Positions 4,249 to 54,661 of a DNA stretch of 64,000 nucleotides are shown piece by piece (the first letter of the stretch is position 1; each line of letters starts with the position of its first letter). This stretch comes from an uncultured virus (IMG/VR IMGVR_UViG_3300043409_001074). Its lineage: Duplodnaviria; Heunggongvirae; Uroviricota; Caudoviricetes. The position numbers and the translations under genes were made by a program. The stretch is from IMG/VR virus record IMGVR_UViG_3300043409_001074, one strand, 5' to 3'. A model generated the notes under the pieces. That model ran no database searches. It worked only from the letters and a program-made list of their open reading frames with translations, and was not told the origin of the DNA.

Positions 4249-4340
4249 TATTCCTTATCGTTCCAGGTTTTCTCTATGAACGTAATATAGGGGAATTTTA
4301 GTTAGGTGTCAACGATTAATTTCACGATATCAGAAGAAAT

Positions 4341-4676: not shown

Positions 4677-4708
4677 GATTCATACCTATTGTCTAGTTAA
4701 AGATAATT

Positions 4709-4793
4709 TGGTGCCCACGGAGGGACTCGAACCCCCACGTCTCACGACTGCGAGGCTTAAACTCGCTGCGTCTACCAATTCCACCACGCGGGC
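4709..4793 (-). tRNA. tRNA-Leu(TAA)
   Basis: Full cloverleaf, GCGAG-TTTAAGC-CTCGC anticodon arm, long variable arm, CCA. Confidence 0.95.
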
Positions 4794-5093
4794 ATAGTAT
4801 CAAAATTTAGATGAATTGGTATCACATTTCATACAATCCATATGATACCTTTAACGTTTATTCATCGGTAAACGATTCAATCCAGAATAGGGAGTCTAGA
4901 TATGGGTATCAACCATTTCATTCATTAGTGACCAACTAACTAGCCATTGATAAGATGGCGCGTATATTTAGAGATACATTAAACAGTCATTCTACACCTC
5001 TCATTCGTTATGTCGTCCCTAGATCAGTAATCTAGGCTATATCTGATCAGGAGTCAAGCATTAAATCTGATCAGATATCGTCTGAATTACCTT

Positions 5094-5243
5094 TATCAAT
5101 GTCTCAATAACGGTCGCAGTCTATAGAATTGCCTCGCAAAATATTACTATTTCGGGCTTTCCTAATACCATCTTACCCTATAGGTGAATAAATGCCTAAT
5201 CTAATGTTAGGTTTCATTCGTTCACATTATTGAGACATTGATA
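5094..5243 (-). ncRNA. candidate structured ncRNA (~150 nt)
   Basis: 17-bp perfect terminal inverted repeat plus inner stems with G-U pairs on the minus strand. Confidence 0.5.
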
Positions 5244-5381
5244 CCCAGCATATTCAAAAGAGAAATACCTATAATGGCTAATATACCAATCAAAGTTAAA
5301 AGTATACTTCCCCAAAATAGGTAAACATAAACTAAAAACATACTATCCATAATTATATATTTTAGTTTATGAATAGTAGGA

Positions 5382-5567
5382 TTACTCATATTCACGTTCC
5401 CGCTTCCATTCCCGATTACTCCGCTTCTTCGCCGATTTCATTTCTTTCTTACGCCATGTAGACCCAGGGGCAGGAAAACAACAAGGACAATCCCGCCCCC
5501 CAGGACCAATACAAAGAAACTTACCAGCCTTGGTATTATTACCATTAGTCGTCATGAGATTACTCAT
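5382..5567 (-). CDS. small Cys-rich basic protein
   Basis: AAGGT RBS; CIGPGGRDCPCC. Confidence 0.7.
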   Translation of the reverse strand: MSNLMTTNGNNTKAGKFLCIGPGGRDCPCCFPAPGSTWRKKEMKSAKKRSNREWKREREYE

Positions 5568-5596
5568 TTTCTAAGTTACCTTATTACTAACTATGT

Positions 5597-5776
5597 TTAA
5601 CGATTCTTCTTTGTGTCACGATACGGAACATGCTTGCTACCAAACTTCCTCCGATACATGCAAACAGTCTTATAGATATCATGGGCACTATACCCGGTAT
5701 ATCTGCTAATGTCAACAACATTCTCGCCATTGATATACAGAGTCAGAATATCCAATGTGACAGGATAGACAATCAT
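5597..5776 (-). CDS. small HTH-like protein (start revised to MIVYP)
   Basis: Cassette promoter plus AAGGT RBS; VVDISRYTGYSAHDIYK resembles an HTH. Confidence 0.6.
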   Translation of the reverse strand: MIVYPVTLDILTLYINGENVVDISRYTGYSAHDIYKTVCMYRRKFGSKHVPYRDTKKNR

Positions 5777-5869
5777 TTTCAAGTTACCTTGTTGAGTGTT
5801 CCTAGTTACTAATCTAGGCTTAATCCTTACCTGAGTCAAGTTAAAAGGTAGGGAAAAAGTATAAATTAG

Positions 5870-6031
5870 TTATTCGATATCATCATCCTCATTATCCCTA
5901 CAACATGGACAGTTTGCAGGGCCAGGACAAGCCCCTGGCCAGTCTGGATATCCACATTGACACCTATTGGCATTGCGCTCTTGTCTAGCAAAATACGCTT
6001 CTTCCGCAATATCCATATCCGTCATACTCAT
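5870..6031 (-). CDS. small Cys-rich acidic protein (53 aa)
   Basis: MSMTDMDIAEEAYFARQERNANRCQCGYPDWPGACPGPANCPCCRDNEDDDIE; GAGGT RBS; cassette promoter. Confidence 0.7.
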   Translation of the reverse strand: MSMTDMDIAEEAYFARQERNANRCQCGYPDWPGACPGPANCPCCRDNEDDDIE

Positions 6032-6122
6032 ATCTAAGTTACCTCGGTTATGTCCCTAGCAACTAATCTAGGCTATATCTGATCCAGAGTCAATAGAAAA
6101 AATGGATCAGATATTGTCAGGA

Positions 6123-6410
6123 TTACCTATTTTCGTTTCTGTAGTGTCGATTCCCACTATAGGCAAGAATACCTAGATTGTCCCTGATCCAGTTTCGTGC
6201 CTGATCAGGGTAATACCCATGCAACATATCATGATACCGCCATGATGCCCGATTATGAAAATCAGACAACTTCATATTACCTGTTTTAATGAAGAAGAAA
6301 TCCGCCGCATTACCTGTTTTAATATAGAACCTCGCCGCCGCTTCATGAATATTCATGCGACAATGCATTTCAATTTCACTCATTCCGGCCCAATATGTTT
6401 TCTTTTCCAT
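6123..6410 (-). CDS. hypothetical protein
   Basis: GAGGT RBS, cassette promoter. Confidence 0.75.
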   Translation of the reverse strand: MEKKTYWAGMSEIEMHCRMNIHEAAARFYIKTGNAADFFFIKTGNMKLSDFHNRASWRYHDMLHGYYPDQARNWIRDNLGILAYSGNRHYRNENR

Positions 6411-6507
6411 TTCTAAGTTACCTCATGTCATCCGTCTTATGAAAGTAATCTAGGCCATTTCCCTATCGGAGTCAAGTCTTATTTGATAGGGAAAAAGTAT
6501 AAATTAC

Positions 6508-6705
6508 TTATTCAATATTCGTAATGCCGAATACCGGATGATCAGGATCAAGCCTATCCTCATTAGTTATTACCATATCCAATCGAATCTTGAAATATTC
6601 ATCGCTTATTGCGTCATATATCGTAATGTCCGAGTCTAATTGTTCATCCTTCAATTTGGATAGAGCAATTAGTAAATTCCGATATGTGAAATTGAACGAG
6701 TCCAT
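6508..6705 (-). CDS. hypothetical protein
   Basis: RBS, cassette promoter. Confidence 0.75.
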   Translation of the reverse strand: MDSFNFTYRNLLIALSKLKDEQLDSDITIYDAISDEYFKIRLDMVITNEDRLDPDHPVFGITNIE

Positions 6706-6803
6706 TTCGTTATACCTTTTCTCTTATGAAAACTAATTTAGGCTAAATCCCTGCCAGAGTCAAGTTAAAAGGCAGGGAAAAAGTATAAATTAGTTATTGA
6801 TTA

Positions 6804-7136
6804 TTAAAAAGAAAAATTGTAATATTTCTCCCGAGTCCCAAAAATGATACCGATGCCGGAAGTGAGTCCACCTTCGCGCCATTGTCCCTTGCGCTGGCCA
6901 GACTTGACCTTGCGATAGGTGAACGTTCGCCCATTCAAATTCCGTGAATAATCGTAATTCTGAGTCTCACTCATGCCATTGGAGTCAATCCGCCGCGCGT
7001 GATCCTCTTGAACAATTACCTCTTTATCAGTTACAGATATGACCGTGCAAGGATAACGATCAGAGTAAGACAATACCGTTGCCGGCCCGTCCAATACAGG
7101 CAAAGAATTGTTATTGGCCAGAATACCGTTGATCAT
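6804..7136 (-). CDS. hypothetical phage protein
   Basis: GAGGT RBS, cassette promoter. Confidence 0.8.
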   Translation of the reverse strand: MINGILANNNSLPVLDGPATVLSYSDRYPCTVISVTDKEVIVQEDHARRIDSNGMSETQNYDYSRNLNGRTFTYRKVKSGQRKGQWREGGLTSGIGIIFGTREKYYNFSF

Positions 7137-7251
7137 TGTTCAGTTACCTCAATCTTGCTAGAAACTAATTTAGGCTTAATCCCTGCCAGAGTCAATAGTG
7201 AAAAGACAGGAAAAAAGTATAAATTAGTTATTGCTTATATCATTCCTTGTA

Positions 7252-7497
7252 TTATTCCTCAATTATGCCGATGATGGAATCGTCATTATCATTCTCACTA
7301 ATGAGAAACATATAACGTTCATGAGTAGAAGTATATCGGCGGATTCCAGGAGTCCCAGGAATGAGAACGTCTGAAATAATACCTAATGCACTATTTTGGA
7401 TATCATACATCCCATCACAAGATTCCGACAACGAATCCACCAATTCATCATCAGATAGGCTATCGATTCGTGTAGCAGGAAAATAGTTATTGGCCAT
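7252..7497 (-). CDS. hypothetical acidic protein
   Basis: AAGGA RBS, cassette promoter. Confidence 0.7.
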   Translation of the reverse strand: MANNYFPATRIDSLSDDELVDSLSESCDGMYDIQNSALGIISDVLIPGTPGIRRYTSTHERYMFLISENDNDDSIIGIIEE

Positions 7498-7614
7498 TGT
7501 GGTTTGTCTTCCTTATTCCTAGTTACTCATTGTAACCTAGGCTATATCTGATCCGGAGTCAATATAGAAAATGGATCAGATATCGTCAGGATTACCGAGA
7601 GAAAAAGTTATTGT

Positions 7615-8067
7615 CTACTTATTGAGACTCCTTTCCATAATGATAGAAGTAATTTCTTTTTTGTATTCTTCCTGAGTAACCTCCCCGGCCCGATACTTGT
7701 CATGAACAATCTTACCCTGAATAAAGGTATTCATGCGATTGACACTATCGGCAGGAACGCCAGCACCATAGTTATCCCGGAAAGCAACGCAATCCGCAGT
7801 ATCCATATACTCATGGAGTCCAGCATGTTGAACGTGTCCCTGATCATCCAGAAACATAGCCCCAGCCTGAGACGAATATGTGGAATACTTAGGCTTGTTC
7901 CAAATATGATACTTTTTCGGATTGCTTGTCTGACTACAAAACCGGACCCCTTTGTTATTGGATTCCAACCAATACCGAATCTTGCACCTTAGACGAAAAC
8001 CATAGGGATAGTCACACACAAGGTATGAAGTATCGGCGGAAACATGGCCCGAAAGAACATTAACCAT
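7615..8067 (-). CDS. hypothetical phage protein
   Basis: GAGGT RBS, cassette promoter. Confidence 0.8.
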   Translation of the reverse strand: MVNVLSGHVSADTSYLVCDYPYGFRLRCKIRYWLESNNKGVRFCSQTSNPKKYHIWNKPKYSTYSSQAGAMFLDDQGHVQHAGLHEYMDTADCVAFRDNYGAGVPADSVNRMNTFIQGKIVHDKYRAGEVTQEEYKKEITSIIMERSLNK

Positions 8068-8291
8068 TTTCTGAGTTACCTCTGTTTTCCCTAGTTACTA
8101 ATCTAGGCTAAATCCCTGCCTGAGTCAATAGGCTAACAGGGAAAAAGTATAAATTAGTTATATTTTATTACCTTTCATAAGACGTTGATATTGCTGATAA
8201 ATCCGTAAAGAGTTAAGGAGTCGAATTATTGAGAAAAATATGAGAATTAGTCTCAATATTGGGACAAAGAAATATTCTCAGTTATTTGTTA

Positions 8292-8513
8292 TTACTGGCC
8301 AGGATAGGGCGGAATGCTGATTCCGTCATCCACCCAGGCAGTATTCTTGCGATTCACCTTGACATGCTGAATCGAAAACCAGCCGAGTCGCGTTGTCGTG
8401 ATTCCACCCCGCTTGTTGGAAAACCATGCCGGAGTCTTGCGAACAAACCGGATTGTGGTCTGATTCTGGCCAACCGTCACGTTTAGGACGCGACCATGCT
8501 TTTGAATCTTCAT
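8292..8513 (-). CDS. hypothetical protein
   Basis: GAGGT RBS, cassette promoter. Confidence 0.7.
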   Translation of the reverse strand: MKIQKHGRVLNVTVGQNQTTIRFVRKTPAWFSNKRGGITTTRLGWFSIQHVKVNRKNTAWVDDGISIPPYPGQ

Positions 8514-8597
8514 AGTTACCTCTATTAGTTTTCCCTAGCAACGAATCTAGGCTCAATCCATACCGGAGTCAATAGGCTGGCATGGAAAGAGTCTAAA

Positions 8598-8837
8598 TTA
8601 GTTATCGAGCATATATGAGTCAAACCATGGACCATAGTTGCGAGTCCGCGCCTTGCCAGTCTTTGTTGTGCATCCGGCCGATGACGTTTGCGGATCACGG
8701 CAATGTGCCTGAGCCTCGGCCAGAGTTAGATTACGATGGATCGTAATCTTGCGTTCCCGATTCGCAAAGATGCGAACAATCTTATAGCGATTCGTATCCG
8801 CGAATGTATAGCGCCGAGTATGTTCTTCCTGAGTCAT
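8598..8837 (-). CDS. hypothetical protein (start revised to MTQEEH)
   Basis: GGAG RBS just downstream of the cassette promoter. Confidence 0.75.
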   Translation of the reverse strand: MTQEEHTRRYTFADTNRYKIVRIFANRERKITIHRNLTLAEAQAHCRDPQTSSAGCTTKTGKARTRNYGPWFDSYMLDN

Positions 8838-8925
8838 TTTATATACTCCATTTTCCCTAGCAACTAAACTAGGCGCAATCCCTACCTGAGTCAAGTTTAA
8901 TCGGTAGGGAAAACGTCTAAATTAG

Positions 8926-9333
8926 TTAATTCAAGTCTTCATCCGAGTCAGGTTCCGCATATGCCGATGCTATACGTTCACCGCTATGCTCACAATATAG
9001 GTCCGCGTCTTCCCAATTAACTTCTACCGCGACAACACCCCATCCATCCTGATAATCGTGCCGAACGGAGTCAGTCACGAGTCGCAGATTCTTGCGAACA
9101 GAGTCGAAAGATAGGGCGCATCCATCCGTTGTAATAAAATATAATGGATACCCACCTAAATCGGTATATTTACCGTATCGCAGCGCCGCCCGCAGTTTAT
9201 GTGTGTTCTGAATTGTCTTATACGATCCAGAATAGACCGGACGTAGTGGCCGGTCACGTGACCAATTAGCGTTGCGCGTATCATAGAGCGCACCATAGTC
9301 CGAGTCGCAGACAAACAAGTGATTCGGCCGCAT
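8926..9333 (-). CDS. hypothetical phage protein (start revised to MRPNH)
   Basis: GGAG RBS just downstream of the cassette promoter. Confidence 0.75.
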   Translation of the reverse strand: MRPNHLFVCDSDYGALYDTRNANWSRDRPLRPVYSGSYKTIQNTHKLRAALRYGKYTDLGGYPLYFITTDGCALSFDSVRKNLRLVTDSVRHDYQDGWGVVAVEVNWEDADLYCEHSGERIASAYAEPDSDEDLN

Positions 9334-9415
9334 AATATTTACTCCATTTTCCCTAGCAACGAATCTAGGCGTAATCCATACCGGAGTCAATAGGCTGGCA
9401 TGGAAAGAGTCAGGA

Positions 9416-9547
9416 TTAGCGTGACGCTAATCCGATTGCTTCCGCTTGTGCCCGTGCATATATTTCGGGCTTGTCCCACATTCCACGCGCCGCATTATCC
9501 ATTATGATCAGTAGATTAACAAACCGCAATTCCAATTCCATTACCAT
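9416..9547 (-). CDS. small hypothetical protein (43 aa)
   Basis: MVMELELRFVNLL...; promoter TTGACA(9596)-N17-TAATCT(9573). Confidence 0.5.
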   Translation of the reverse strand: MVMELELRFVNLLIIMDNAARGMWDKPEIYARAQAEAIGLASR

Positions 9548-10291
9548 GCTCCGTTCCTATGGATCATAGATTAGGCGAACCGGGCCGGAATGTCAAGCGG
9601 GAAAAAATGGTCATTCCCGTTTTTTCTTTCCTGCCCGACCCGTCAGCCCTTCCGTTTCCATGACCCGTTTGTAGTCGATTCATTCGATCCGGTCAATCGC
9701 AATCGTGCCGATTCGGCCCAATCTTTTTCTTGGGATTCGTCTCAATTTCCGATTGTCCGTCTATCTTTAATTTGAGACTCAATGGTCGCCTTCGCCGTAG
9801 TGCGCTGTCAGCCCCTCGTTCTATTTAAGAGTGTATCAGGTCCGAATCAGGAAAGCAACGTCTAATTTCTAGTTTTTTAATTTTCTTTTCCTGCTATTTT
9901 CCTATTGACTCTGGACTGGATTCTGATAGAATCGCTATATCAGACTAGTGGCGGGGGCCTGGCACGGCGAAGACGACTATATATCCTCATTTTTTAGATT
10001 GTCTCATAACAGTAGAATTGACGGGATTCCGCTTATCGGCAGGTTATCGGCAGGCTATCGGCAGAGGGTAGGCGATATCATCCAAGCCCCTAGGATCGTT
10101 CCCTAGGCCAGTCTGATCATGGGCCGCCAGGGCAGTGACCGAAACCATATAAAACCCGTCCTGAACGATCCTAGCAGCCCTAGCGGCAATTTCGCATATT
10201 TTTTGTTAGGTGTGAATCATCGCTTGAAATCTCTGATCAATGCGCCTACATTCCGAATCGCGGAAACGCAATGACATAAAGGATTCGTAAT

Positions 10292-11794
10292 ATGTCGGTT
10301 TTCATTCCTTCGACTCAACAGTCTGCCATTTTCGAATCGACCGGCAACATCATTATTGGCGCTGTTGCCGGTAGCGGTAAGACAACGACTCTTATCAATC
10401 TGTTGCCCTATTTGAAGGGCACCGTTGCGCTTATGGCGTTCGGTAAAAATATCGCCGCCGAGATTCGCGCGAAAGTAGCCAAACTGGATTCGAGTGTGAC
10501 GGAACGAGTCACCGTGGGAACATTCCATTCCTTCGGGTATGCCGCCGTCCGTGCGGTATACAAGCGGACGAAAGTTGAAGGCAAGAAATGCCAGATTCTT
10601 GCGGAACGGATTCAGATTCCTGCCGAACATGTTGCTTTCGCCATCGCAACGGTTGGCAAGGCAAAAAACACGGGTCTCGGCGCCTTGTCACCATTTAATG
10701 ACAAACTGGCATGGTACAGCCTTGTGGATCATTTTGACCTTGCGGATTCGCTTCCTGACGATGGTAGCGTTCCGCTTGAGTCTGCCCTACGTTCCGCTTG
10801 CCTGTTGCTGAAAGCGAGTAATGCCGCTTGTGATGAATTCATTGATTTCGATGATCAAATATACATTCCGATACTGCAAGGCTTGCGGGTTTGGCAGTAT
10901 GACAATGTTTTGCCGGATGAAGCGCAGGATACCAATGCCACAAGGCTTGCGCTGGCCAAGGCGATGCTTCGCGCGGGCGGGCGTATGATCGCGGTAGGCG
11001 ATGATCGTCAAGCCATTATGGGCTTTTCTGGCGCCGATGCTGACTCCATGGCGAATATCAAGGCGCAATTCAACGCCAAGGAATACCCGCTTACAGTGTC
11101 CTACCGTTGCCCGAAAAATGTCGTTCTGGATGCACAACAATGGGTTTCACACATTGAATCCCATGAGTCTGCCGCCGATGGTATCGTTTCGCATATTACT
11201 AATAAGGAATTTAACGATACGTTCGCCATGGATTTGACCTATGCCGATGCAATCCTATGTCGGAATACTATGCCGCTGATCACAATGGCGTATAATCTAA
11301 TTGGGCGCGGCGTAGGTTGTCAAATTGAAGGTAAAGATATTGCAACGGGCTTAGTTAAGCTGGCCACGCGCTGGCGCCGCGTAAAGACCATAAAGACTCT
11401 GCGTGATCGGCTGGAATCGTGGCTGGAAACCGAAACAACAAAGGCACTCGCGAAAGGTAACGAGAATCGCGCTGCGACGGTTAATGATCAAGCCGAGTGC
11501 CTGTTTGTTATCATGGCACAACTTTCCGATGATGATACAGTTGACTCGTTGAAGACTCGAATCGTCGCCTTGTTCGGTGATACGCCGGCCGGGGAACGTC
11601 CCAAGGTTGTTACACTGTCAACGATTCATAAGAGCAAGGGCCGGGAATGGTCGCGCGTGTTTATTTACGGGAAAGAAACATATCAGCCGTCAAAGTATGC
11701 CCGGCAGGACTGGCAAATACTACAAGAAATGAATCTTATGTATGTGGCCGCTACTCGGGCCATGGCTGAATTGCACTATGTTTCAGTGACGTAA
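10292..11794 (+). CDS. UvrD/Rep-like superfamily 1 helicase
   Basis: AVAGSGKTT Walker A, DEAQD, GDDRQAI, SYRC, TIHKSKGREW and YVAATRA motifs; promoter TTGAAA-N17-TACATT at 10224-10252. Confidence 0.92.
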   Translation: MSVFIPSTQQSAIFESTGNIIIGAVAGSGKTTTLINLLPYLKGTVALMAFGKNIAAEIRAKVAKLDSSVTERVTVGTFHSFGYAAVRAVYKRTKVEGKKCQILAERIQIPAEHVAFAIATVGKAKNTGLGALSPFNDKLAWYSLVDHFDLADSLPDDGSVPLESALRSACLLLKASNAACDEFIDFDDQIYIPILQGLRVWQYDNVLPDEAQDTNATRLALAKAMLRAGGRMIAVGDDRQAIMGFSGADADSMANIKAQFNAKEYPLTVSYRCPKNVVLDAQQWVSHIESHESAADGIVSHITNKEFNDTFAMDLTYADAILCRNTMPLITMAYNLIGRGVGCQIEGKDIATGLVKLATRWRRVKTIKTLRDRLESWLETETTKALAKGNENRAATVNDQAECLFVIMAQLSDDDTVDSLKTRIVALFGDTPAGERPKVVTLSTIHKSKGREWSRVFIYGKETYQPSKYARQDWQILQEMNLMYVAATRAMAELHYVSVT

Positions 11795-11814
11795 CGATCT
11801 GATAGCGTAACATT

Positions 11815-11854
11815 GCGGCGGCGGATCGTTTCGGTCTAGCCGCCGTTTCTATTT
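11815..11854 (+). terminator. probable intrinsic terminator
   Basis: GC-rich GCGGCGGC...GCCGCCGT hairpin followed by a T-rich tract. Confidence 0.55.
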
Positions 11855-12084
11855 GCGCTCCCATTGATACGATATGGCAATGATACGATATGTCAACGAT
11901 AATAATGTTTTACTTGCGAAATGAAACTATAATCGTTTCGGTTACGAAAGTGTAACGATACGACGGCGCAACGGACAATATTCCTATTCTAGAAAAGTTA
12001 GCGGCACTTTAGGAATAAATTCCTTGTGGGGACCCCGGCCCCCTTTAGCGGTTTTTAATTCGAGATCATTCATTATTCATTCAT

Positions 12085-35274: not shown

Positions 35275-37221
35275 TTAAGTAGTAATCTTTTTATTCTTTT
35301 TTAACTGACTAACATCAGCCGTGGCGCTTGCCCCTAATTGTGCAAGGTCTGCAAGAGTTCCCCCAAATATGTATGATCCAACATGCTGTAATGCAATCCA
35401 GGGACATAACCATACCTTGCCACCCATCTTTCTCACATTCTGACAAAAGAAATAATCTTCTGATAAATATCTTTTTGTCTCTGGATCAATGATACAATCG
35501 AAATATGCCGTAATTTCTCTACTACCATCGAATGCATCCGTGCGAACATGATCCGGCTTATAACTATACTGTGGATATGCCTCTTTGTAAAGATCAAAAG
35601 TTTTACGACGAATCATCATAAAGCCAGTTCCAGTTTCCATAACTTCGGCAGGTTCATTAATTTGAATATGAGTAGTATTGCCAGCAGGATTAAATACATA
35701 ATCTCCAACATATTTATTTAAATTCTCTGGATCATCATCTGCAAATCCTTTATCGACCGCCATTTTAATTTTTTCCCAGCTAATACAATTGCGAATAAAA
35801 ACTGTATTATATAGGAAATTATGATTATTTTCAACTCCAATATCATATTGATCACTATCATAATCAATTTTTTCTACAGATTCAATTTTAGTGGCAGCGA
35901 ATTCTAATCTATCATTATTTAATGGAACGAATTCACTGTTTCTATATTTTTCTGGAAGTTTATATTGCATATGTTCTGGAATATGTTTTGATATAATTTG
36001 AAAAAATTTATCAGCATCGCCATTAACGAATCTTAATCTTTTATATGTTCTTTTAGTAACATCATTGGCTGTAGGTTGCATTTCATCAATACGAACATTA
36101 AATCCATATGTGTTCTTAAAATATTCTACAAGAAGTAATTGATCCTCATCAGAAAATCCCTGAGTATTCAATTCACAATAATGTGCAGTATCGCCAGACT
36201 TCTTTAGGCAACCATCATCCATATACCAAAATGCTAGTGCAATATCGTTAATATATGGAATTATATTTTTAACAGTTTTTTCATTATTTTCAAAAAATAA
36301 TTCTCTGGCATATTTTGTTTGTCCATTAACTATAGATGAAAGTTGAAAAATTTGTGAAGTGGAATATCCAACTGATTTATATTCTCTAATAGTTCCACCA
36401 AATAAATTTTGTTTATATTCTAAATATTCTTTTTGTTTTTCTCCATGACTACATGATAATCTATTATATCTACCAGATATATGACTATCTCCCATCAATG
36501 TCCCAATTAATGCAGAAACAACATCTGTATTATATAAAGCCTGTGATCTTACGTTTTCTGGGTTTAATGAAGTGTATTTTCCGACCATTTCATCAACTCT
36601 TTTAAATTGAATAGTTGGATTAAATAAATCTTCAACATAAGAAATTTCATGATCATATGTCATAATCAATTTTTTAGCTTTAGTTGGGTGTTTTGATAAT
36701 TTAACTTCTACCCATTTGTTATTATTAGGGTTTAAGTGATGTTCTAGAATATTATTCCATGATGTCTTACCAGTATCATCAATGGTTAATACCTTTCCAT
36801 TATATTTGTTATCAACAATCCATTTAATTTTCTTGTAACCATCCTCAGTTAAAATTTTGGCATTTTTATGAATTGATTTTTTTGGATACGGACCTGCAAG
36901 GACATCATATGGTGATTCATCTGATTGCATCGCTAACATAGCAATAACATCATTAGCATTGAAACCAATATCAGCGTCAACGAATAGAAAATGTGTTGAG
37001 TCACTACGTAGAAATTCATCTACACAATAATTTCTTGCCCGAGGGATTAGTGATTCGTTGAATAAAGAGTAGAATTTCATTTCTATTCCATATTTCATAC
37101 AAACTGCTGTCAGATCAGATATCGACCTATTATAGATGCCCGCGCACATGCCGCCGAACATTGGACTGGCCAAAAATAATTTCTTTTTTTGTAGCTCTTC
37201 GTGGGTAATTTTAATTTCCAT
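35275..37221 (-). CDS. glycosyltransferase-like protein interrupted by an intein
   Basis: ESLIPRARN, FVDADI, GTGFM and LSEDYFFC (GT-A-like). Confidence 0.75.
   Translation of the reverse strand: MEIKITHEELQKKKLFLASPMFGGMCAGIYNRSISDLTAVCMKYGIEMKFYSLFNESLIPRARNYCVDEFLRSDSTHFLFVDADIGFNANDVIAMLAMQSDESPYDVLAGPYPKKSIHKNAKILTEDGYKKIKWIVDNKYNGKVLTIDDTGKTSWNNILEHHLNPNNNKWVEVKLSKHPTKAKKLIMTYDHEISYVEDLFNPTIQFKRVDEMVGKYTSLNPENVRSQALYNTDVVSALIGTLMGDSHISGRYNRLSCSHGEKQKEYLEYKQNLFGGTIREYKSVGYSTSQIFQLSSIVNGQTKYARELFFENNEKTVKNIIPYINDIALAFWYMDDGCLKKSGDTAHYCELNTQGFSDEDQLLLVEYFKNTYGFNVRIDEMQPTANDVTKRTYKRLRFVNGDADKFFQIISKHIPEHMQYKLPEKYRNSEFVPLNNDRLEFAATKIESVEKIDYDSDQYDIGVENNHNFLYNTVFIRNCISWEKIKMAVDKGFADDDPENLNKYVGDYVFNPAGNTTHIQINEPAEVMETGTGFMMIRRKTFDLYKEAYPQYSYKPDHVRTDAFDGSREITAYFDCIIDPETKRYLSEDYFFCQNVRKMGGKVWLCPWIALQHVGSYIFGGTLADLAQLGASATADVSQLKKNKKITT
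35788..36876 (-). mobile_element. intein with LAGLIDADG homing endonuclease (363 aa)
   Basis: YPKK|SIHKNAKIL...TYDH...LIGTLMGDS...FWYMDDG...YDIGVENNHNF...FIRN|C. Confidence 0.9.
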
Positions 37222-38994: not shown

Positions 38995-39186
38995 ATGACA
39001 ATTTTTAGATTTCTTGTAGTGAATAGGAATAACAATTTATTAAAGAAATTTACGAATTCTGAAGCCGTAAGAATATTTCTTGGAAATAAGAATGTGGATG
39101 ACTATATCATCATTAAGAATAATTCAGATGGAGTAAGGGTTGTGAATTTTAATGAATTAGACAAACCACTAGTAACAGGGCAGTAG
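38995..39186 (+). CDS. hypothetical protein
   Basis: AGGA RBS, 63 aa. Confidence 0.55.
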   Translation: MTIFRFLVVNRNNNLLKKFTNSEAVRIFLGNKNVDDYIIIKNNSDGVRVVNFNELDKPLVTGQ

Positions 39187-39254
39187 TTTAAATGGTTAAA
39201 ACGTCGGACTGTGATTCCGAAGAGTGTCGGTTCGAGTCCGACCGCACCTGACCA
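39176..39254 (+). tRNA. tRNA-His(GTG), irregular acceptor stem
   Basis: TCGGA-CTGTGAT-TCCGA anticodon arm, canonical D and T arms, ACCA. Confidence 0.8.
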
Positions 39255-39265
39255 ATAAATATTAT

Positions 39266-39349
39266 GAAATAGGTAGTTTAACAAGAAAAATAGCTTCATG
39301 CCGGTTGTTCGTTGCAGATATTGGTTCAAGTCCAATCCTATTTCTAACA
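39266..39349 (+). pseudogene. tRNA-like element without a clear anticodon arm
   Basis: GAAATAGG/CCTATTTC acceptor; ATTGG-TTCAAGT-CCAAT T arm. Confidence 0.5.
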
Positions 39350-39432
39350 ATCAATAAAGGATTTACTATGATAGACCTTTCAGAAAAAATCTATGATAAA
39401 TTAAAAAATATATTGTATGATGAAAACTATAA

Positions 39433-39520
39433 GGGATGGTATACCACTAAAGACGTGGCCTGGACTGTAAATCCAGTGTTCGATTGAACTGATAAGGAGC
39501 GTTACCTTGACATCCCACCA
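39433..39520 (+). tRNA. tRNA-Tyr(GTA) with non-canonical T loop
   Basis: CTGGA-CTGTAAA-TCCAG anticodon arm, variable stem GTTC/GAAC, T loop AGCGTTA, ACCA. Confidence 0.75.
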
Positions 39521-39563
39521 AATTTTTCATTATTGGTTACTATATAAAATACAATAATATTAA

Positions 39564-39709
39564 TCCCAGCTGGCTCAATGGTAGAGCACTTGACTGTAGG
39601 ACCAAGCGCAGAATGCAGTTGGGTAGAATATACCCGACATTGCCGTGCAATACGGATAGGTCCGAGATTAATCAGGTGGTTGCAGGTTCGAGTCCTGCGC
39701 TGGGAGCCA
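39564..39709 (+). tRNA. tRNA-Asn(GTT) interrupted by a 71-nt insert in the anticodon
   Basis: Joining 39564-39596 and 39668-39709 gives a canonical 75-nt tRNA-Asn (U1-A72, G73, CCA). Confidence 0.85.
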
Positions 39710-39766
39710 TTTTTTCCTCTTGACTTCGATAATCAGATAGAGTAGTATCCACAAACAATAGAATAT

Positions 39767-39843
39767 GGGTCTGTAGCTTAATTAGTTAAAGCCGTCACCT
39801 CATAAGTGATTTTATGTCAGTGCAAATCCGACCGGACCTACCA
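39767..39843 (+). tRNA. tRNA-Met/Ile2(CAT)
   Basis: GTCAC-CTCATAA-GTGAT anticodon arm, ACCA; promoter TTGACT-N17-TAGTAT at 39720-39748. Confidence 0.85.
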
Positions 39844-39870
39844 AAATTTATCACATAAAGGAATTACATC

Positions 39871-40479
39871 ATGGCAGTAGTAAATCTTCGCAAGGCTTCC
39901 GTTATTCAACGCAACATTCAGGCGCGTATTAAGGAATTACAATCTTCCTTAGAAATCACTACACGCACTATGCAAATTTGGAATACATATCCAAATTCAT
40001 TCGTGGTAGATAGTCGCACGGCTGCACAAAATAATATTACACAAGTTGTTAAGCTGCGCCGAATTCTGGGTGATATTCGTCATAGTGTTGGTGCCGCAAA
40101 TCATAATTGTGGTATTAATGCCTACCTAACTTCCAGGGAACTAATTAAGCATAACGTTAGCATGTTTAATTCTCTGCGGAAAGCTGATATACAACTATCT
40201 CCCGAGGAATTGGAAAGTAAAATTCAGTATATCAAGAATTCTGATACTGCTGATACTTCCTCATATGGTCGAGGTGCCTATGGGCGAAATTCCTCTGCTT
40301 CTTCCGTGGAATTAAATATTTTCACTAAGGAAGATATCGAAAACATGGAAGATATGTATAATAGTTATAAAGCCGATCTTGTCGTAATTGAGGATGAACT
40401 ACTTCGCATTAATATGAATAGTAATATTACTATTTCCGAAGTAGATTATTCCTTTCTAAAAGAATTACATCTGGTATGA
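39871..40479 (+). CDS. coiled-coil hypothetical protein
   Basis: AAGGA RBS; helical heptad pattern. Confidence 0.8.
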   Translation: MAVVNLRKASVIQRNIQARIKELQSSLEITTRTMQIWNTYPNSFVVDSRTAAQNNITQVVKLRRILGDIRHSVGAANHNCGINAYLTSRELIKHNVSMFNSLRKADIQLSPEELESKIQYIKNSDTADTSSYGRGAYGRNSSASSVELNIFTKEDIENMEDMYNSYKADLVVIEDELLRINMNSNITISEVDYSFLKELHLV

Positions 40480-40496
40480 CCGTATACTGGATGTGA

Positions 40497-40707
40497 TACT
40501 ACTATTATGGTTATGGTAGAGGTATAATTTAAAATAACAAACGACCGGGGCATTTAGCCAAATATATCTTGATCTTTTCTTTAAATTATTCTAATTAATT
40601 AGAATTTGTATTTTGATGAAAAGTTATGATTTCTTGTTGGTTGTATTTTGTTCGTTGTTCTTTGTTCTTTGTTCAAAATTATATTTTATCGTGCCATAAT
40701 AGTAGTA
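40497..40707 (+). ncRNA. candidate ~210-nt structured RNA with heptamer repeats
   Basis: 14-bp perfect inverted repeat extended by G-U-rich pairing; unpaired (TTGTTCN)x4. Confidence 0.65.
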
Positions 40708-40744
40708 GACTACCATTTATTATATTTAATAGAGGAAATATATT

Positions 40745-41704
40745 ATGAAAATTTGGGATAATATCAAGCGTATTGATGATGAAGCCGAACGTGTTGCTAA
40801 GTTTATTTTTACCCGTGATAACGCGGTCGCAGAGGCGGTTTTATACCGTTACCCTACCTACCTAGAGCGAACGGTTATCTGCTGCTCTACGCAGTCTGGA
40901 TGCCCCGTAGGATGCCGGTTTTGTGGCGCCGGGGATTACTTCGTTCGCTCACTGACTACTGAGGAAATCGTTAGTCAGGTAGAGCATCTATTAGAGGAAA
41001 CTAACTGCAACCCGGCATCCATGAAGCGGCTGCAAATTATGTTCATGTCCATGGGTGAACCATTATTGAATTTGAAGAATTTAGTTCCAGCATTACGTAT
41101 TCTGTATAACATGTATCCTAATGCTACATTGTTAATCTCTACATCTGCACCTAGAATTAATGATGAAAACCGTAAACTGCTGATGGATATTTCTGTTGAA
41201 ATTCCTACTATTGGTCTACAATTCTCGGTTCATGAGTCAACAGATGAAGAACGAAATCTATTAATTCCATTTAAAAAGAAATTGACATTGGACGAAATTG
41301 TAGATTTTGGAACGGAATGGTTTACAACTACGTCTCGCAAGCCATTTTTTAACTATTGCGCTCACGATAATAATTCATCCGAGGTTAATGCAGATGAAAT
41401 TTATTTAAAGTTTAACCCATTTGTATTCAATGCAACGGTATCTGTTGTATGCGAACGAAATGATGGTATGGCCGCAAGCAATCAGCATCAACGAGATTTA
41501 GCAGTTGACTTTGCCGCTAAATTGGTAGAACGTGGCTATGACGTTCGGGTATTTGATCCTGCTGGCCAGGATACTATTGGTGGTGGATGTGGGCAGTTAC
41601 ACTATGTTCAACAATGGTTTAAGGATAACCCTAACAATACCCGACCATCTATTGGATATGGAAAAGACGTTGTTCATGCACCGAGGGAAGTAGAATTAAC
41701 TTAA
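40745..41704 (+). CDS. RlmN/Cfr-like radical SAM RNA methyltransferase
   Basis: STQSGCPVGCRFC, MSMGEPLLN, GCGQL. Confidence 0.85.
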   Translation: MKIWDNIKRIDDEAERVAKFIFTRDNAVAEAVLYRYPTYLERTVICCSTQSGCPVGCRFCGAGDYFVRSLTTEEIVSQVEHLLEETNCNPASMKRLQIMFMSMGEPLLNLKNLVPALRILYNMYPNATLLISTSAPRINDENRKLLMDISVEIPTIGLQFSVHESTDEERNLLIPFKKKLTLDEIVDFGTEWFTTTSRKPFFNYCAHDNNSSEVNADEIYLKFNPFVFNATVSVVCERNDGMAASNQHQRDLAVDFAAKLVERGYDVRVFDPAGQDTIGGGCGQLHYVQQWFKDNPNNTRPSIGYGKDVVHAPREVELT

Positions 41705-41727
41705 ATACTATACTATATAACTGATAT

Positions 41728-41808
41728 GCGGATATTTTGGCCGAAGGGTGGTCACTAGGCTTCCAACCTAGCCTTTAATTAGACGGAGTTCGATTCTCCA
41801 TATCCGCT
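41728..41808 (+). tRNA. tRNA-Gly(TCC), atypical (long variable loop, no encoded CCA)
   Basis: GCGGATA/TATCCGC acceptor, CTAGG-CTTCCAA-CCTAG anticodon arm, TTCGATT T loop. Confidence 0.75.
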
Positions 41809-42448: not shown

Positions 42449-42796
42449 ATGGTTCCGGCGGGGGGGAAGCATCTTTTAATTGACTATTGGGATATCCAAG
42501 AAGAATTATTAGATGACGTGAATAAGATACAGGAAATTTTAATTGCTGGTGCCGAATTAGGTGGTGCCACGGTTTTGTTTTCATATATGCATCCCTTTGG
42601 GGAAGATTATGGAGTAAGTGGAGTAATAGTGCTTGCAGAAAGTCATGTTTCGTGGCATTCTTGGAAAGACGAAAATTTCGTGGCGATTGATATTTTCATG
42701 TGTGGAAATTGTGATCCAGAAATTACTGAAAATTATTTTAACAAAATGTTCCAGCCATTACGGAGTGTGAAACATTTAAGAATGAGAGGCGAATAA
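42449..42796 (+). CDS. speD: S-adenosylmethionine decarboxylase
   Basis: GKHL...GVSGVIVLAESH...DIFMCG. Confidence 0.9.
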   Translation: MVPAGGKHLLIDYWDIQEELLDDVNKIQEILIAGAELGGATVLFSYMHPFGEDYGVSGVIVLAESHVSWHSWKDENFVAIDIFMCGNCDPEITENYFNKMFQPLRSVKHLRMRGE

Positions 42797-42797: not shown

Positions 42798-43187
42798 ATG
42801 GAAAATAAATATTGGGGTTATCATGGAATTTTTGATTGCTATAAAGGTGATATTTCAAAGGTTACATCCCCAGAAAATATCAGAGAATTTATCATTGATT
42901 TAGTGAAAACTATTGATATGGTTGCATATGGCGAACCAATTATTGAGCATTTTGCTCTCCATGATCCAGATAAGGCTGGATGGTCATTAGTTCAATTGAT
43001 TGAAACTTCTTCAATCACTGGACATTTTGTAGATAAGACTGGTGAGTTTTATATTGATGTATTTTCATGCAAACCATATGACATTCAATTAGTTAAAAAT
43101 TCTATTCAGGAATATTTCAATCCCGAAAATATTGACACTACTACATTAGTTAGACAGGCTAATCCTATTAATCAAACTAATTGGTAA
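42798..43187 (+). CDS. second AdoMetDC-family protein
   Basis: WGYH..DC...QLIETSSITGHF...DVFSCK. Confidence 0.8.
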   Translation: MENKYWGYHGIFDCYKGDISKVTSPENIREFIIDLVKTIDMVAYGEPIIEHFALHDPDKAGWSLVQLIETSSITGHFVDKTGEFYIDVFSCKPYDIQLVKNSIQEYFNPENIDTTTLVRQANPINQTNW

Positions 43188-51675: not shown

Positions 51676-52743
51676 TTAGCCCTCACATGCCAAACATTCA
51701 TTATCATCATTATTCATTTGTAATTCTGGAATTTCTTCAATTACATTTCTCTCGATTTGTTCAGATAGATTATCTGCTCTTTTTAATTTTTCACTTCTAC
51801 AATAATACAATGATTTAATACCAAATTTCCAGGCCAGAAAATGTGTATTATGTAATTTTGGTATCTTCACATTTGGTGGTAGAAATATATTAATAGATTG
51901 TCCCTGATCAATATATTTTTGTCTCATTGCTGCTAATAGAATAATCCAATTCTGATCAAGTTCCATGGCAGTTTTAAATACATTTTTCTGATGTTTAGTC
52001 AGAAAACTTAGATGTTGAACTGATCCATTATTTGATGCGATATTTCTCCACATATCCTCAATATCTAAATTCAATTCGGCACATTTTTTCACTAGAATTT
52101 TATTTAGAAATTTATTCTTATTCAATCCCGCACCAGATAATGTATCTTGTCTATATGCATTAGCTGAGAATGGTTCAATGGATGGTGAGGTATTTCCCAT
52201 AATAATAGATGTAGATGCATTAGGAGCAACACTCATTACATGTGATAATCTATTACCTGTTCCCTCTGCATCTGGGGCTTCTCCACGTTCCTTACCTAAT
52301 CTTTTATTAGCAATATCACATTGTTCCCTAATATGTTTAAACATTACATTATTAATATTAATTGCTGCTAGACTTTCAAATACAATGTTATTTTTCTGAA
52401 GATATGCATGAAAACCTAATGCACCTAAACCAACTGATCTTTCTCTAGTAGCAGAATAAATTGCTCTAGAAATTGCCTGTGGGGCATCATCAATAAATGT
52501 CTGTAATACATTATCTAACATTTCCATAATATCAGAAATGAATAATTCATTATTTTTCCATTCATCAAAATATTCTAATCCTACTGATGATAGGCAACAT
52601 ACTGCTGTTCTATCTTTATTAGTGGGTAATTCTATTTCGCTACAATTATGTAATAATATCCCATTACCAAAGAAATTATGATTTCCTTCAACTGTAATAT
52701 CATATACTGAAATTTCCTCGTCAAGATATTCTATTTTTAACAT
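51676..52743 (-). CDS. nrdA: RNR alpha subunit C-part with split intein C-half (52645-52743)
   Basis: VYDITVEGNHNFFGNGILLHN|CSEI; APNASTS; KSLYY; CLACEG. Confidence 0.93.
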   Translation of the reverse strand: MLKIEYLDEEISVYDITVEGNHNFFGNGILLHNCSEIELPTNKDRTAVCCLSSVGLEYFDEWKNNELFISDIMEMLDNVLQTFIDDAPQAISRAIYSATRERSVGLGALGFHAYLQKNNIVFESLAAININNVMFKHIREQCDIANKRLGKERGEAPDAEGTGNRLSHVMSVAPNASTSIIMGNTSPSIEPFSANAYRQDTLSGAGLNKNKFLNKILVKKCAELNLDIEDMWRNIASNNGSVQHLSFLTKHQKNVFKTAMELDQNWIILLAAMRQKYIDQGQSINIFLPPNVKIPKLHNTHFLAWKFGIKSLYYCRSEKLKRADNLSEQIERNVIEEIPELQMNNDDNECLACEG

Positions 52744-53479
52744 TTATTCTTCCTTTTATGTAACCTTTATTTAAATATTCATTTAATTGTGATTTATTTA
52801 CTGCAATATTTTTGATACCATTATTTATAAATATTTTCCCCATTATAGACAGAGATAGTTTTTTAATATGATCTTCAGTTTTCTTATTTTTTTCAATTTT
52901 TAATCCTGTCATATCTACTAACTTTGAATATATGTAATCTTTATTTCCTCTATATTTAGAAAGAGATTTAGGAAAATTTACTATTCCATCATCAATTATT
53001 AGTTGGGATAATTTTCCGAAACTTAATATTTTACCTAATTCAATACATTTGCTGTAAAGTAAATTAATAAAATTTTCATTATCTATTCCAGAATAACGCG
53101 GATTATTTTCCCCAGTTGAAGTTTCAATTATTTTTTGTCTCCATAATTCTTGTCTCTCTAATGTCATTCTAGGTATCATCCAACCGCCTGTTCCCCCGGA
53201 AGTAGCATTGTATCCTAATTTCGGATTATCAGATTTATACATTTTTATCCAATATATTTCTTTTTCTTTGGCTAAACTTTCATTTTCAATATTATCTTCT
53301 AATTTTTCAATAAAGAAATTTTCCGGTTTATGAAAATTTATGGCGAAATGAAATCTAAATTTAGGAATATTTCTAGCAACAGTTAAATGGGATTTAAATC
53401 TTGCTTCTAATTTTCTTCCAGTATATCCAATATAATTTTTATTATTAATAGTATTCCGTATTATATAAACAGTAAACAT
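52721..53479 (-). CDS. free-standing GIY-YIG homing endonuclease
   Basis: VYIIRNTINNKNYIGYT...R...GYNATSGG. Confidence 0.9.
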   Translation of the reverse strand: MFTVYIIRNTINNKNYIGYTGRKLEARFKSHLTVARNIPKFRFHFAINFHKPENFFIEKLEDNIENESLAKEKEIYWIKMYKSDNPKLGYNATSGGTGGWMIPRMTLERQELWRQKIIETSTGENNPRYSGIDNENFINLLYSKCIELGKILSFGKLSQLIIDDGIVNFPKSLSKYRGNKDYIYSKLVDMTGLKIEKNKKTEDHIKKLSLSIMGKIFINNGIKNIAVNKSQLNEYLNKGYIKGRINVKNRIS

Positions 53480-53536: not shown

Positions 53537-54661
53537 TTAAGAATCACAAAATAATTTATCAGTTTCCAATAATTCTTTAGCCATAACATATCCTCTATTA
53601 GTTGTATAAATTTTATGTTCTGGCGTGCAAATTATATAATTCCCATTTTCCATAGTTATTTTCATAACTTTAGCTTTTGGATTAGTTAATGAAAAATGAG
53701 TTACAGGTTTAAATTCAAATTTATTTGTATTAATGTCATATGAATAAACTTTTATCAGCGATTTATTCATATAATTTCCTAGTTCACTCATTTTTACATC
53801 TATAATATTTTCATTTTCATCCAATATGGTAATTATTGTATCACCAGATACACAGAGATTCGACTGTTGAATTTTCAATCCTCTATCTTTTAACCAATAT
53901 GGTAAACCTTTATTAGCAGTATCAATAAAATGAAGATACGGTTCGCCAGTTTCAATTCTAGTAGTCATAATTTTCTGCCATAATTGTTTAGCAGAAATAG
54001 TATTTTTTACTTTCCCATTGGGGTCCTTCAATTGCCAGGAATCATCATAATTTTCATATTTCATGCAATTTTCAATAATTTTCATGAAATCATCAGTAAT
54101 ATTAATGCCATGATGAATATTAGGTGCCCGCATTCGGGGATCGCCTGTTGCTTTACGCATATCAATAAACATTTCAATATCAGGATGATCAATATTTAAA
54201 TATGTTGCAAATGATCCACGTCTGCTAGTGCCTTGTTTATATGCTAATGTTGCAGCATCATAAATTTTAAGATGTGGCATAATACCAACAGACAATTCAT
54301 CTGCTGATCTAATATCAAAACCAATTCCAACACCACCACCAAGCATTGATAACCAATTAGTTTCTGATAATGTATCTACTAACCCTTCCTTACTGTCGTG
54401 CAAATAGGGCAGATAGCAGGAAATAGGAAGTCCATTTTTAGTTCTTCCATATGATAACACTGGTGTTGCGTATGATAACCAATGTTTAGAACTATAATCA
54501 TATAATCTTTGTGCGTGTTCTGGATTTGAACTGAATTTCTGTGAAACGTATGCAAATCGTTCCTGGGGTGAGGTTTCCTCTGGTCGCATATATGATTCTT
54601 TAAGTCTAGTAATTCCCAATTCATCAAATAAATTATCACGAGTTGTATCAATTTTAATCAT
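53537..54661 (-). CDS. nrdA: RNR alpha subunit N-part with split intein N-half (53540-53854)
   Basis: PISCY, GGGVG, RRGSFA, GEPY, QSNL|CVSGDT...CTPEHKI. Confidence 0.93.
   Translation of the reverse strand: MIKIDTTRDNLFDELGITRLKESYMRPEETSPQERFAYVSQKFSSNPEHAQRLYDYSSKHWLSYATPVLSYGRTKNGLPISCYLPYLHDSKEGLVDTLSETNWLSMLGGGVGIGFDIRSADELSVGIMPHLKIYDAATLAYKQGTSRRGSFATYLNIDHPDIEMFIDMRKATGDPRMRAPNIHHGINITDDFMKIIENCMKYENYDDSWQLKDPNGKVKNTISAKQLWQKIMTTRIETGEPYLHFIDTANKGLPYWLKDRGLKIQQSNLCVSGDTIITILDENENIIDVKMSELGNYMNKSLIKVYSYDINTNKFEFKPVTHFSLTNPKAKVMKITMENGNYIICTPEHKIYTTNRGYVMAKELLETDKLFCDS

Follow-up and report, generated by a model that had tools for sequence, protein, structure and literature searches.

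The DNA analysed here, referred to as the window, is a stretch of 64,000 nucleotides (nt) from an uncultured tailed phage of the class Caudoviricetes (IMG/VR record IMGVR_UViG_3300043409_001074). Its subject is a two-part locus, in which the gene of a 202-amino-acid (aa) helical protein, the cc protein, is followed by a structured RNA carrying regularly spaced UUG triplets. The window covers the replication region of a T4-like phage with a G+C content of about 30%, and encodes a UvsX-like protein, a clamp-loader subunit, a family B polymerase, a DnaB-like helicase, a ribonucleotide reductase with inteins and a ligase. We report that the cc gene and the RNA belong to families that accompany each other in many large phages, and we weigh what the pair may do.

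A helical protein gene adjoins a structured RNA

The cc open reading frame (ORF) and the RNA stem are both on the + strand and are separated by a 17-nt gap, with tRNA genes on either side; the first-pass annotation, made from the sequence alone, had placed the element just after a 202-aa ORF in a tRNA cluster, and this holds. Coordinates are positions in the window unless prefixed by the locus name of a relative (L001, L054 and so on). The parts of the locus are as follows.

39871..40479, + strand: gene of the 202-aa helical cc protein (ORF, homologues and AlphaFold model)
40497..40707, + strand: structured RNA, its ends set by the closing stem; weaker outer pairs extend to 40488-40715
40497..40530, + strand: 5' arm of the closing stem (minimum-energy fold)
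40549..40559, + strand: small hairpin GGC-AUUUA-GCC, put by covariance-model alignment at the conserved small hairpin of the RNA family described below; identical sequence in L054
40566..40630, + strand: inner stem-loop, the equivalent of helix 3 of the family (fold and covariance-model alignment)
40606..40615, + strand: UUG block 1, two UUG 7 nt apart (fold and covariance-model alignment)
40634..40671, + strand: UUG block 2, six UUG at 7-nt steps in the same register as block 1
40676..40707, + strand: 3' arm of the closing stem (minimum-energy fold)

The + strand of the RNA region has a fold energy of -66.5 kcal/mol (z -4.86), equalled by none of 200 shuffles, and the - strand one of -39.3 kcal/mol (z -2.77), equalled by 3 shuffles. 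G-U pairs account for 14 of the 92 pairs predicted in the minimum-energy fold. An RNA on the + strand, as initially proposed, is the better reading, because the + fold is stronger than the - fold and contains these G-U pairs. The closing stem comprises 32 base pairs (bp) in total, arranged in segments of 15 bp (40497-40511 with 40693-40707), 9 bp (40513-40521 with 40684-40692) and 8 bp (40523-40530 with 40676-40683). Two 14-mers at 40497 and 40694 had been described as perfectly paired, and 40497-40510 is indeed fully complementary to 40694-40707; the additional ~18 bp of stem, many of them G-U, are likewise found in the minimum-energy fold. A second stem, drawn between 40531-40550 and 40631-40649, is only roughly placed, and the actual inner pairs join 40548-40552 with 40649-40653 and 40555-40561 with 40637-40643. 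The inner stem-loop contains an apical hairpin (40588-40605) together with the first two UUG.

The heptamer repeats reported in the first-pass annotation are present and are more numerous than the four noted there: eight TTG, at 40606, 40613, 40634, 40641, 40648, 40655, 40662 and 40669, share a single 7-nt register. Dinucleotide-shuffled versions of the spacer (20,000) had at most 5 TTG in register and no run longer than 4, as against the 8 and 6 observed, and the run in the RNA is the only one of at least four in-register TTG on either strand of the window. The suggestion that the repeats are largely unpaired does not follow from the single-sequence fold, in which they partly pair with 40533-40545, and agrees with the family consensus, where they sit outside every covarying helix.

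The fold and the repeats are retained in close relatives

Two distinct spacers of the window lineage were fetched as loci, one being that of the window, which is also that of L001 (and of L002 and L053), and the other being common to L003 and L054. The proteins of L003 and L054 are 55-57% identical to that of the window. The window and L054 agree at 82% of positions in the spacer, at 65% in the cc gene and, in the radical SAM gene that follows the RNA, at 56% of third codon positions. Both spacers fold into the same hairpin, and of the 74 pairs in their joint structure 65 are unchanged, 5 have changed on one side, 4 have changed on both sides and none is broken. Differences fall in 13 of 148 paired columns versus 36 of 124 unpaired columns. 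The closing stem shows one two-sided change (40510-40694, GC to AT) and four one-sided changes with pairing kept, and the inner stem-loop shows two two-sided changes (40584-40612 and 40585-40611). Because only two distinct spacers were fetched as loci, covariation within the lineage rests on one comparison. All eight TTG are retained in L054, and a third, near-identical variant of the RNA, on contigs of two public runs, differs by 2 substitutions and 3 small indels, none of them in a TTG. The four public runs drawn on consist of DNA contigs, and of 22 public runs listed none is of RNA.

The L001 protein is 92% identical to that of the window, and there are zero differences over window positions 40411-40758 (348 nt), a tract that includes the whole spacer. 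L001 also differs from the window in its flanking genes. An HNH endonuclease gene (L001 1567-2157, - strand) takes the place of the tRNA-His to tRNA-Met stretch (window 39177-39843), and an N-terminally truncated HNH gene (L001 2951-3334, + strand) replaces the radical SAM gene and tRNA-Gly (window 40745-41808). The right-hand junction lies 14 nt inside the radical SAM ORF and adjoins the 348-nt identical tract.

A family of RNAs with eight UUG repeats accompanies the cc gene

Among distant homologues of the cc gene the DNA after the stop codon is alike, and 16 such stretches were aligned. Common to the aligned RNAs are a hairpin, a closing helix of 13 bp, a further helix of 6 bp and an inner helix. 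They also share eight invariant TG, which follow each other at exact 7-nt steps in blocks of 2, 4 and 2; a 2+6 layout occurs in the family as well. Block 2 of the window corresponds to the family blocks of 4 and 2 minus the intervening hairpin, as in Caulobacter phage CcrPW. Members are 225-270 nt long and lie on the same strand as the cc gene. The repeat logo reads N-U(71%)-U-G-Y(88%)-N-N. The repeats form the most conserved part of the RNA, and the invariant letters outside helices are mostly the TG of the repeats.

Of 48 distant protein loci, 45 were matched by a sequence profile of the 16 RNAs, in each case on the + strand of the locus, and in the three loci missed (L008, L040 and L042) the contig ends where the element would lie. 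The same profile gave no match in 80 control loci of large phages without the cc gene, which had been fetched by their radical SAM protein. Searching in the reverse direction, with a 24-nt pattern from the 3' part of the RNA, returned 80 viral loci, 67 of which are the RNA according to the profile. A cc gene lies within 1.5 kilobases (kb) on the same strand of 65 of these 67 confirmed RNAs and of 0 of the 13 chance matches. As for the two exceptions, one has a cc gene 1.5 kb upstream in the record and the other is cut by the contig end, so that the gene is found in the same record for 66 of the 67 distinct RNAs. A position downstream of the gene is not the rule in the family: of the 65 placed RNAs, 31 are downstream and 34 upstream. 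The gap between gene and RNA is usually 0-80 nt; at some loci the two are separated by an entire tRNA, by a different ORF or by about 1.5 kb.

Compensatory changes support the consensus structure. In a 34-sequence alignment 93.8% of cells are paired and 23 of 26 pairs show two-sided changes, none of 500 shuffles reaching either measure, and controls with slid partners lower pairing to 43-55%; with 40 sequences the corresponding values are 91.9%, 23 of 26 pairs and 0 of 500 shuffles, both alignments having been fitted to the model, which favours its structure. A first alignment made with MAFFT only showed compensation in 25 of 31 pairs. By a hand sum over the 34-sequence pair table, about 97 of 878 paired cells (~11%) are G-U or U-G. 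Because these cells would be A-C mismatches on the other strand, we read the structure as an RNA on the strand of the gene.

tRNA genes occur near the cc gene in 29 of the 31 loci scanned, all those called being on the strand of the gene and often including an adjacent tRNA-Met; in L004 and L006, for example, tRNAs flank the RNA. Where the RNA lies downstream of the gene, a terminator-like hairpin with a T run often comes after it (e.g. L047, L022 and L014). The cultured Caulobacter phages CcrColossus and CcrPW carry the protein-RNA pair, with the protein as gp272 and gp279 and the RNA in an unannotated gap behind it. In Rfam 15 no family was found for the canonical member L009 or for the CcrPW copy, with nothing below E 1 in a search extended to E 10, and over 20 loci only tRNA and GOLLD scored, neither at the place of the RNA.

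A further RNA and a candidate RNA were seen in these neighbourhoods. In 7 of the 20 loci scanned GOLLD RNA (RF02032, 191-238 bits) is no more than 2.5 kb away from the module, at L018 1971-2427, L009 3792-4253, L027 357-820, L023 4719-5180, L024 49-512, L046 961-1423 and L010 3304-3736, and in at least three of them (L018, L009 and L027) a tRNA is inside the GOLLD match. One branch of the protein family has a second conserved non-coding element of ~215 nt directly after the stop codon (CAGACCCCG ... GGCUAGACACUUUAUAAA), present at L024 3068-3300, L025 2422-2650, L007 1980-2215, L008 3068-3290, L013 3068-3290, L017 3068-3300 and L018 1010-1240. In these 7 sequences 16 of 31 predicted pairs are compensated, and no Rfam family was found at its place; the element may be another unnamed RNA tied to the cc protein.

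The window RNA as a diverged member of the family

Covariance models were built from 16 RNAs (R1), 34 RNAs (R2) and 40 RNAs including the two Caulobacter phage copies (R3, 224 positions), with the lineage of the window in none of them. The E-values of these models are rough. R1 scored the window RNA at 11.2 bits (E 0.12 in 20 kb, or 0.0021 in 351 nt) and ranked the equivalent RNA first within L054 (E 0.045), R2 gave 14.4 bits (E 0.036) for the window and 17.0 bits (E 0.009) for L054, and R3 gave 26.5 bits (E 5.6e-6) for L054. The R3 match in the window, at 40537-40675, is the best in 70.6 kb (22.7 bits, E 6.1e-5). R1 and R2 give the same colinear match more weakly, and the score rises as the models broaden. 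Over model positions 47-199 the R3 alignment proceeds colinearly through the small GGC...GCC hairpin, the inner helix with two UUG and then the six UUG. The variable hairpin of the family is deleted in this alignment of the window, and CcrPW, to judge from its sequence, shares the 2+6 layout.

Several results count against membership. The R3 match is partial, spanning 47-199 of 224 positions, and its score carries a 14-bit composition correction in addition to the rough E-value. The purine-rich closing helix and the GUCUAUYACU motif at the 3' end of the family are unmatched in the window, and a sequence-only profile of the RNA family (nhmmer) did not find the RNAs of the window, L001, L003 or L054. 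The sequence of the window closing stem is unrelated to the closing helices of the family. In the Caulobacter phage copies the outer helix is retained and the inner closing helix fits poorly, with non-standard pairs; we treat the closing-stem sequence as probably variable within the family and not as defining it. Judged by position, repeat count and register, and model scores, the window RNA very probably belongs to the UUG-heptamer family, and on these comparisons it is best described as a diverged, AT-rich member with the 2+6 layout.

The cc protein is a widespread helical protein modelled as a dimer

A pattern scan followed by alignment yielded 50 viral loci with proteins 23-32% identical to that of the window, and many of the contigs are 100-400 kb long. 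When 1.84 billion representatives were searched with a profile, 1,843 representative clusters matched at E <= 0.001, of which 372 also passed E <= 1e-30, and among the best 150 of the 1,843 nearly all proteins are 184-200 aa long. No Pfam family rose above noise at E <= 0.01 in any of the 40 members scanned, and the window protein itself gave only sub-threshold coiled-coil noise in Pfam (DUF1978, 21.3 bits against a cut-off of 25.4). NCBIfam produced scattered weak matches and nothing consistent. In PHROGs, 12 of the 40 members match phrog_25230, which has no annotated function. A sequence profile against PDB chains found nothing below E 0.03. In tblastn against phages the L011 protein had no match, and other members of the family matched two Caulobacter phages only.

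AlphaFold, given a 40-row alignment, predicts a helical bundle closed by a small sheet from both termini, with a mean predicted local distance difference test (pLDDT) score of 86.8. When two copies are modelled together, the prediction is a symmetric dimer whose interface is large; its interface score (ipSAE) is 0.61, compared with 0.00 for the best control. Of 30 proteins solved as pairs, 20 attain this mark, against 1 of 23 solved as single chains. Contacts agree to at least 96% among the three runs, and the pLDDT of the partner is 84. These models support self-association of the cc protein. Among predicted viral structures the fold recurs, for example in proteins of Caulobacter phage CcrColossus, Vibrio phage Vp_R1 and Erwinia phage pEa_SNUABM_47.

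A phage ribonucleoprotein is the likeliest reading

The structured RNA family is real, lies on the strand of the protein gene and has a near-obligate, two-way linkage to it. The proposal of a protein-plus-non-coding-RNA module is thus borne out, since distant homologues at 23-32% identity nearly always adjoin a structured RNA with 7-nt UUG repeats; a search for homologues lacking such an RNA downstream, the result named beforehand as damaging, did not refute it. The linkage survives a flipped order and intervening tRNAs or genes, which favours a trans-acting pair and disfavours a leader or 3' untranslated region. We consider it probable, though by no means certain, that 39871-40479 and ~40497-40707 form a two-part module of many large tailed phages, for which a phage ribonucleoprotein is the likeliest interpretation.

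According to this proposal, the RNA would be transcribed together with the cc gene and the neighbouring tRNAs, and its ends would be made by tRNA-trimming enzymes or by a terminator, so that flanking tRNAs or a terminator-like hairpin would define them. The cc protein would form a symmetric dimer, each dimer would read two UUG 7 nt apart, and four dimers would coat one RNA to give a ribonucleoprotein. We infer binding because the linkage outlasts changes of gene order, because the invariant TG of the repeats come in even-numbered blocks at a fixed step and because the modelled dimer is symmetric; it is plausible that the repeats are binding sites of an oligomeric protein. The home in tRNA clusters, often near GOLLD, suggests a role in phage RNA handling or translation during infection. 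The most specific form of the idea, an unnamed, widespread phage ribonucleoprotein in which four dimers of a 190-aa helical protein sit on eight UUG and act on RNA metabolism of host or phage, is offered tentatively, at rather less than even odds. The particle would be made alongside the phage tRNAs and could serve, for example, in translation take-over or in defence against tRNA-targeting host immunity.

Some observations pull the other way. Gene linkage and a modelled dimer are indirect evidence for contact between protein and RNA, and in the single-sequence fold of the window RNA the repeat block is partly paired to the 5' arm, so the repeats may not be free. The 34- and 40-sequence alignments lean towards the structure to which they were fitted. 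The 348-nt identity between the window and L001 may reflect a recent recombination tract beside a homing-endonuclease gene and not selection, because HNH endonuclease genes replace the flanking genes in L001. Around the Caulobacter phage copies no tRNA is annotated within 1.5-3 kb, and the tRNA setting is thus frequent and not universal.

The strongest competitor to the ribonucleoprotein is an RNA that works without the protein, either as an RNA-only machine or as a UUG decoy for a host RNA-binding protein, the cc gene being a co-expressed neighbour with a separate task. GOLLD and ROOL, large phage RNAs near tRNAs, provide a precedent, as they can act as RNA-only assemblies according to PMC12286853. 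GOLLD itself lies within 2.5 kb in 7 of 20 loci, and the binding of the cc protein to its RNA is putative. However, a near-complete two-way linkage at 23-32% protein identity would be hard to keep without a direct functional tie, and eight repeats in pairs suit a dimeric reader. We judge this explanation unlikely, while giving it more weight than any other competitor.

Somewhat less probable again is a cis-acting control element of the cc mRNA, a leader or 3' untranslated region through which the protein would limit its own synthesis. Such an element would account for an RNA that is always on the strand of the gene and usually 0-80 nt away, and for the downstream copies that often precede a terminator-like hairpin and T run (L047, L022, L014). 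The order of gene and RNA nevertheless varies (34 upstream versus 31 downstream), some loci have a tRNA, an ORF or about 1.5 kb in between, and a length of 230-270 nt with eight sites far exceeds the needs of autoregulatory operators as generally known.

An element acting as DNA, in which 7-bp iterons or promoter elements would be bound by a protein and the inverted repeat would mark an origin, is very improbable. Iteron origins combine direct repeats with an adjacent inverted repeat in AT-rich DNA, and the locus resembles them in general terms; a weak promoter-like match is also present in the 3' arm (40672-40700). Against this stand the ~11% of G-U among paired cells, tolerated on the + strand only, the far better folding of the + strand of the window than of its - strand, and the constant placement of the element on the strand of the gene and tRNAs. 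An ordinary long terminator or a chance hairpin without function of its own, suggested by the intergenic place and by the ease with which AT-rich spacers fold, is scarcely credible given a z of -4.86, a repeat pattern seen in none of 20,000 shuffles, a spacer conserved above the flanking coding DNA with compensated pairs, a match to the family model and no terminator-like site called at the element.

Novelty and significance

Among the papers listed by full-text searches, no title or abstract opening describes the protein-RNA pair, and both parts are nameless in Rfam 15, Pfam and NCBIfam. The RNA could be included without a name in a catalogue of 10,006 candidate viral RNAs (PMC10690425); six contig names from this analysis are absent from the 6 of its supplementary files that were searched. 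The RNA family is apparently new, the protein family unannotated and the pairing new, the whole being apparently undescribed.

Large phages carry tRNA clusters and giant RNAs such as GOLLD, and the present analysis defines a second conserved RNA in these surroundings. In contrast to GOLLD, this RNA is accompanied by a protein gene of its own and offers a testable recognition code, eight UUG at a 7-nt step. If the ribonucleoprotein reading is true, the pair would represent a new class of RNA-protein machine in large phages. Its presence in the cultured phages CcrColossus and CcrPW, which grow on Caulobacter, a laboratory host that does no harm, makes binding, stoichiometry, processing and phenotype directly testable. 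The pair would also provide a lead to what many phage proteins now called 'hypothetical' do, and with its simple repeat code it may find use as a tool.

Neighbouring genes and other features of the window

The tRNA genes surrounding the module are tRNA-His, a tRNA with an insert called by Rfam only, tRNA-Met and tRNA-Gly. Two features precede the cc gene.

39720..39748, + strand: sigma-70-like promoter match TTGACT-17-TAGTAT (9 of 12 matches), preceding tRNA-Met
39767..39843, + strand: tRNA-Met (CAT), directly upstream of the cc gene; tRNA-Met also flanks the gene in many distant relatives

L054 carries TTGACA-17-TATACT at the equivalent place; sigma-70-like matches are no commoner in the window locus than in shuffles. 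The promoter-like match may drive tRNA-Met, the cc gene and the RNA in one putative transcript. The full-length tRNA that Rfam reports at 39564-39706 (+ strand) is 143 nt long, ~70 nt over normal, and is absent from the ARAGORN calls. The same over-long tRNA is found at L054 2102-2244, overlapped by an opposite-strand ORF (L054 2210-2806), and the gene may contain an intervening sequence.

Downstream of the RNA, 40745-41704 (+ strand) encodes a 319-aa radical SAM protein matching phrog_24834, which has no annotated function. Its relatives are encoded in 208 viral stretches, and the best 80 of these 208, at 55-70% identity, show it to be highly conserved in large phages. As a partner in the module the radical SAM gene was rejected, a cc gene being found in 0 of the 80 loci that hold its relatives; L001 also contradicts such a partnership, since it has the truncated HNH gene in that place and retains the RNA. 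The adjacent genes 42449-42796 and 42798-43187 (+ strand) both match S-adenosylmethionine decarboxylase (E 4.9e-28 and 1.1e-15), and the gene pair is retained in L001 and L054.

Elsewhere in the window, a LAGLIDADG intein is found in the 648-aa ORF at 35275-37221 (- strand). Ribonucleotide reductase has its large subunit split into ORFs 51676-52743 and 53537-54661 (- strand), each with a terminal intein-splicing sequence, and a 252-aa ORF (52721-53479) lies between the two. Positions 1-12000 have a G+C content of 38-49%, compared with about 30% elsewhere, and encode a UvrD-like helicase and a DUF7227 protein. A DNA search of 39700-41000 against 50,697 phage records gave no match.

Comparison with known systems

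The first-pass annotation had likened the locus to a type III toxin-antitoxin system, and the two do share a protein gene paired with a repeat-bearing RNA gene in phage-related DNA. In ToxIN-type systems tandem repeats of ~34-40 nt are cut by an endoribonuclease toxin (ToxN/AbiQ), and the RNA gene stands before the toxin gene with a terminator between them. The assignment was rejected because repeat unit, protein fold and gene order all fail. The repeat unit here is 7 nt within one folded RNA, not a tandem unit of ~36 nt. The protein model consists of bundled helices; none of the 40 members scanned matches a nuclease family, and the top fold matches include no nuclease, although absence from a fold list is weak on its own. 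Finally, the RNA is downstream of the gene in the window and, family-wide, upstream in 34 cases and downstream in 31.

Phage non-coding RNAs within tRNA gene clusters have precedents in GOLLD (RF02032) and in the two small stable RNAs of the phage T4 tRNA cluster. The RNA described here differs from GOLLD in being smaller (225-270 nt), in forming a separate family and in having its own protein gene. The Rfam 15 scan recovered tRNAs only, both at the locus and across the whole window, with no other family at the gathering threshold and no match to GOLLD or ROOL.

Structured RNAs encoded beside a dedicated protein, the nearest known parallels in gene layout, include OLE RNA with the Oap proteins and the bacterial or phage Y RNAs with Rsr (Ro), and the ends of Y RNAs form a long stem comparable to the closing stem seen here. 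A partner protein for OLE RNA is named in PMC3413148. The RNA and protein families of these pairs are unrelated to ours, they have no UUG array, and they belong to other hosts and contexts.

For the cc protein itself the closest likeness in shape is to DIP1984-like proteins (Pfam DUF6847, PF20935). The best solved match of the model, 3kdq from Corynebacterium, aligns over 144 of 152 residues with a root-mean-square deviation of 5.2 and a VIA-align Z of 11.2 (Foldseek E 0.025), a Z of ~11 between helical bundles possibly reflecting a mere shared arrangement; a structure search of the Atlas gave a template-modelling (TM) score of 0.61 to the 'DIP1984 family' cluster. The two differ in sequence, with 0 of 40 members matching DUF6847 at E <= 0.01.

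The recognition proposed for the UUG array has parallels in proteins that read regularly spaced triplets. HutP and TRAP are ring proteins that bind triplet repeats separated by fixed spacers, and the HutP unit, UAG plus 4 nt, has the same 7-nt period as the array. What they bind are short leader regions governing termination in a single operon. They differ from the cc protein in family and fold, since their Pfam families are absent from the 40 cc members (E <= 0.01) and the cc model is helical.

CsrB/RsmZ-type RNAs present many GGA motifs in hairpin loops at irregular spacing, each bound by half a CsrA dimer. CsrA is small, beta-rich and encoded by the host at a locus away from the RNA gene, whereas here UUG recur at an exact 7-nt step and the candidate reader is a 190-aa helical bundle encoded next door. 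With several dimers assembled on one multi-motif RNA, CsrB/CsrA is, by general comparison, the closest known working principle to the one proposed for the cc protein and its RNA.

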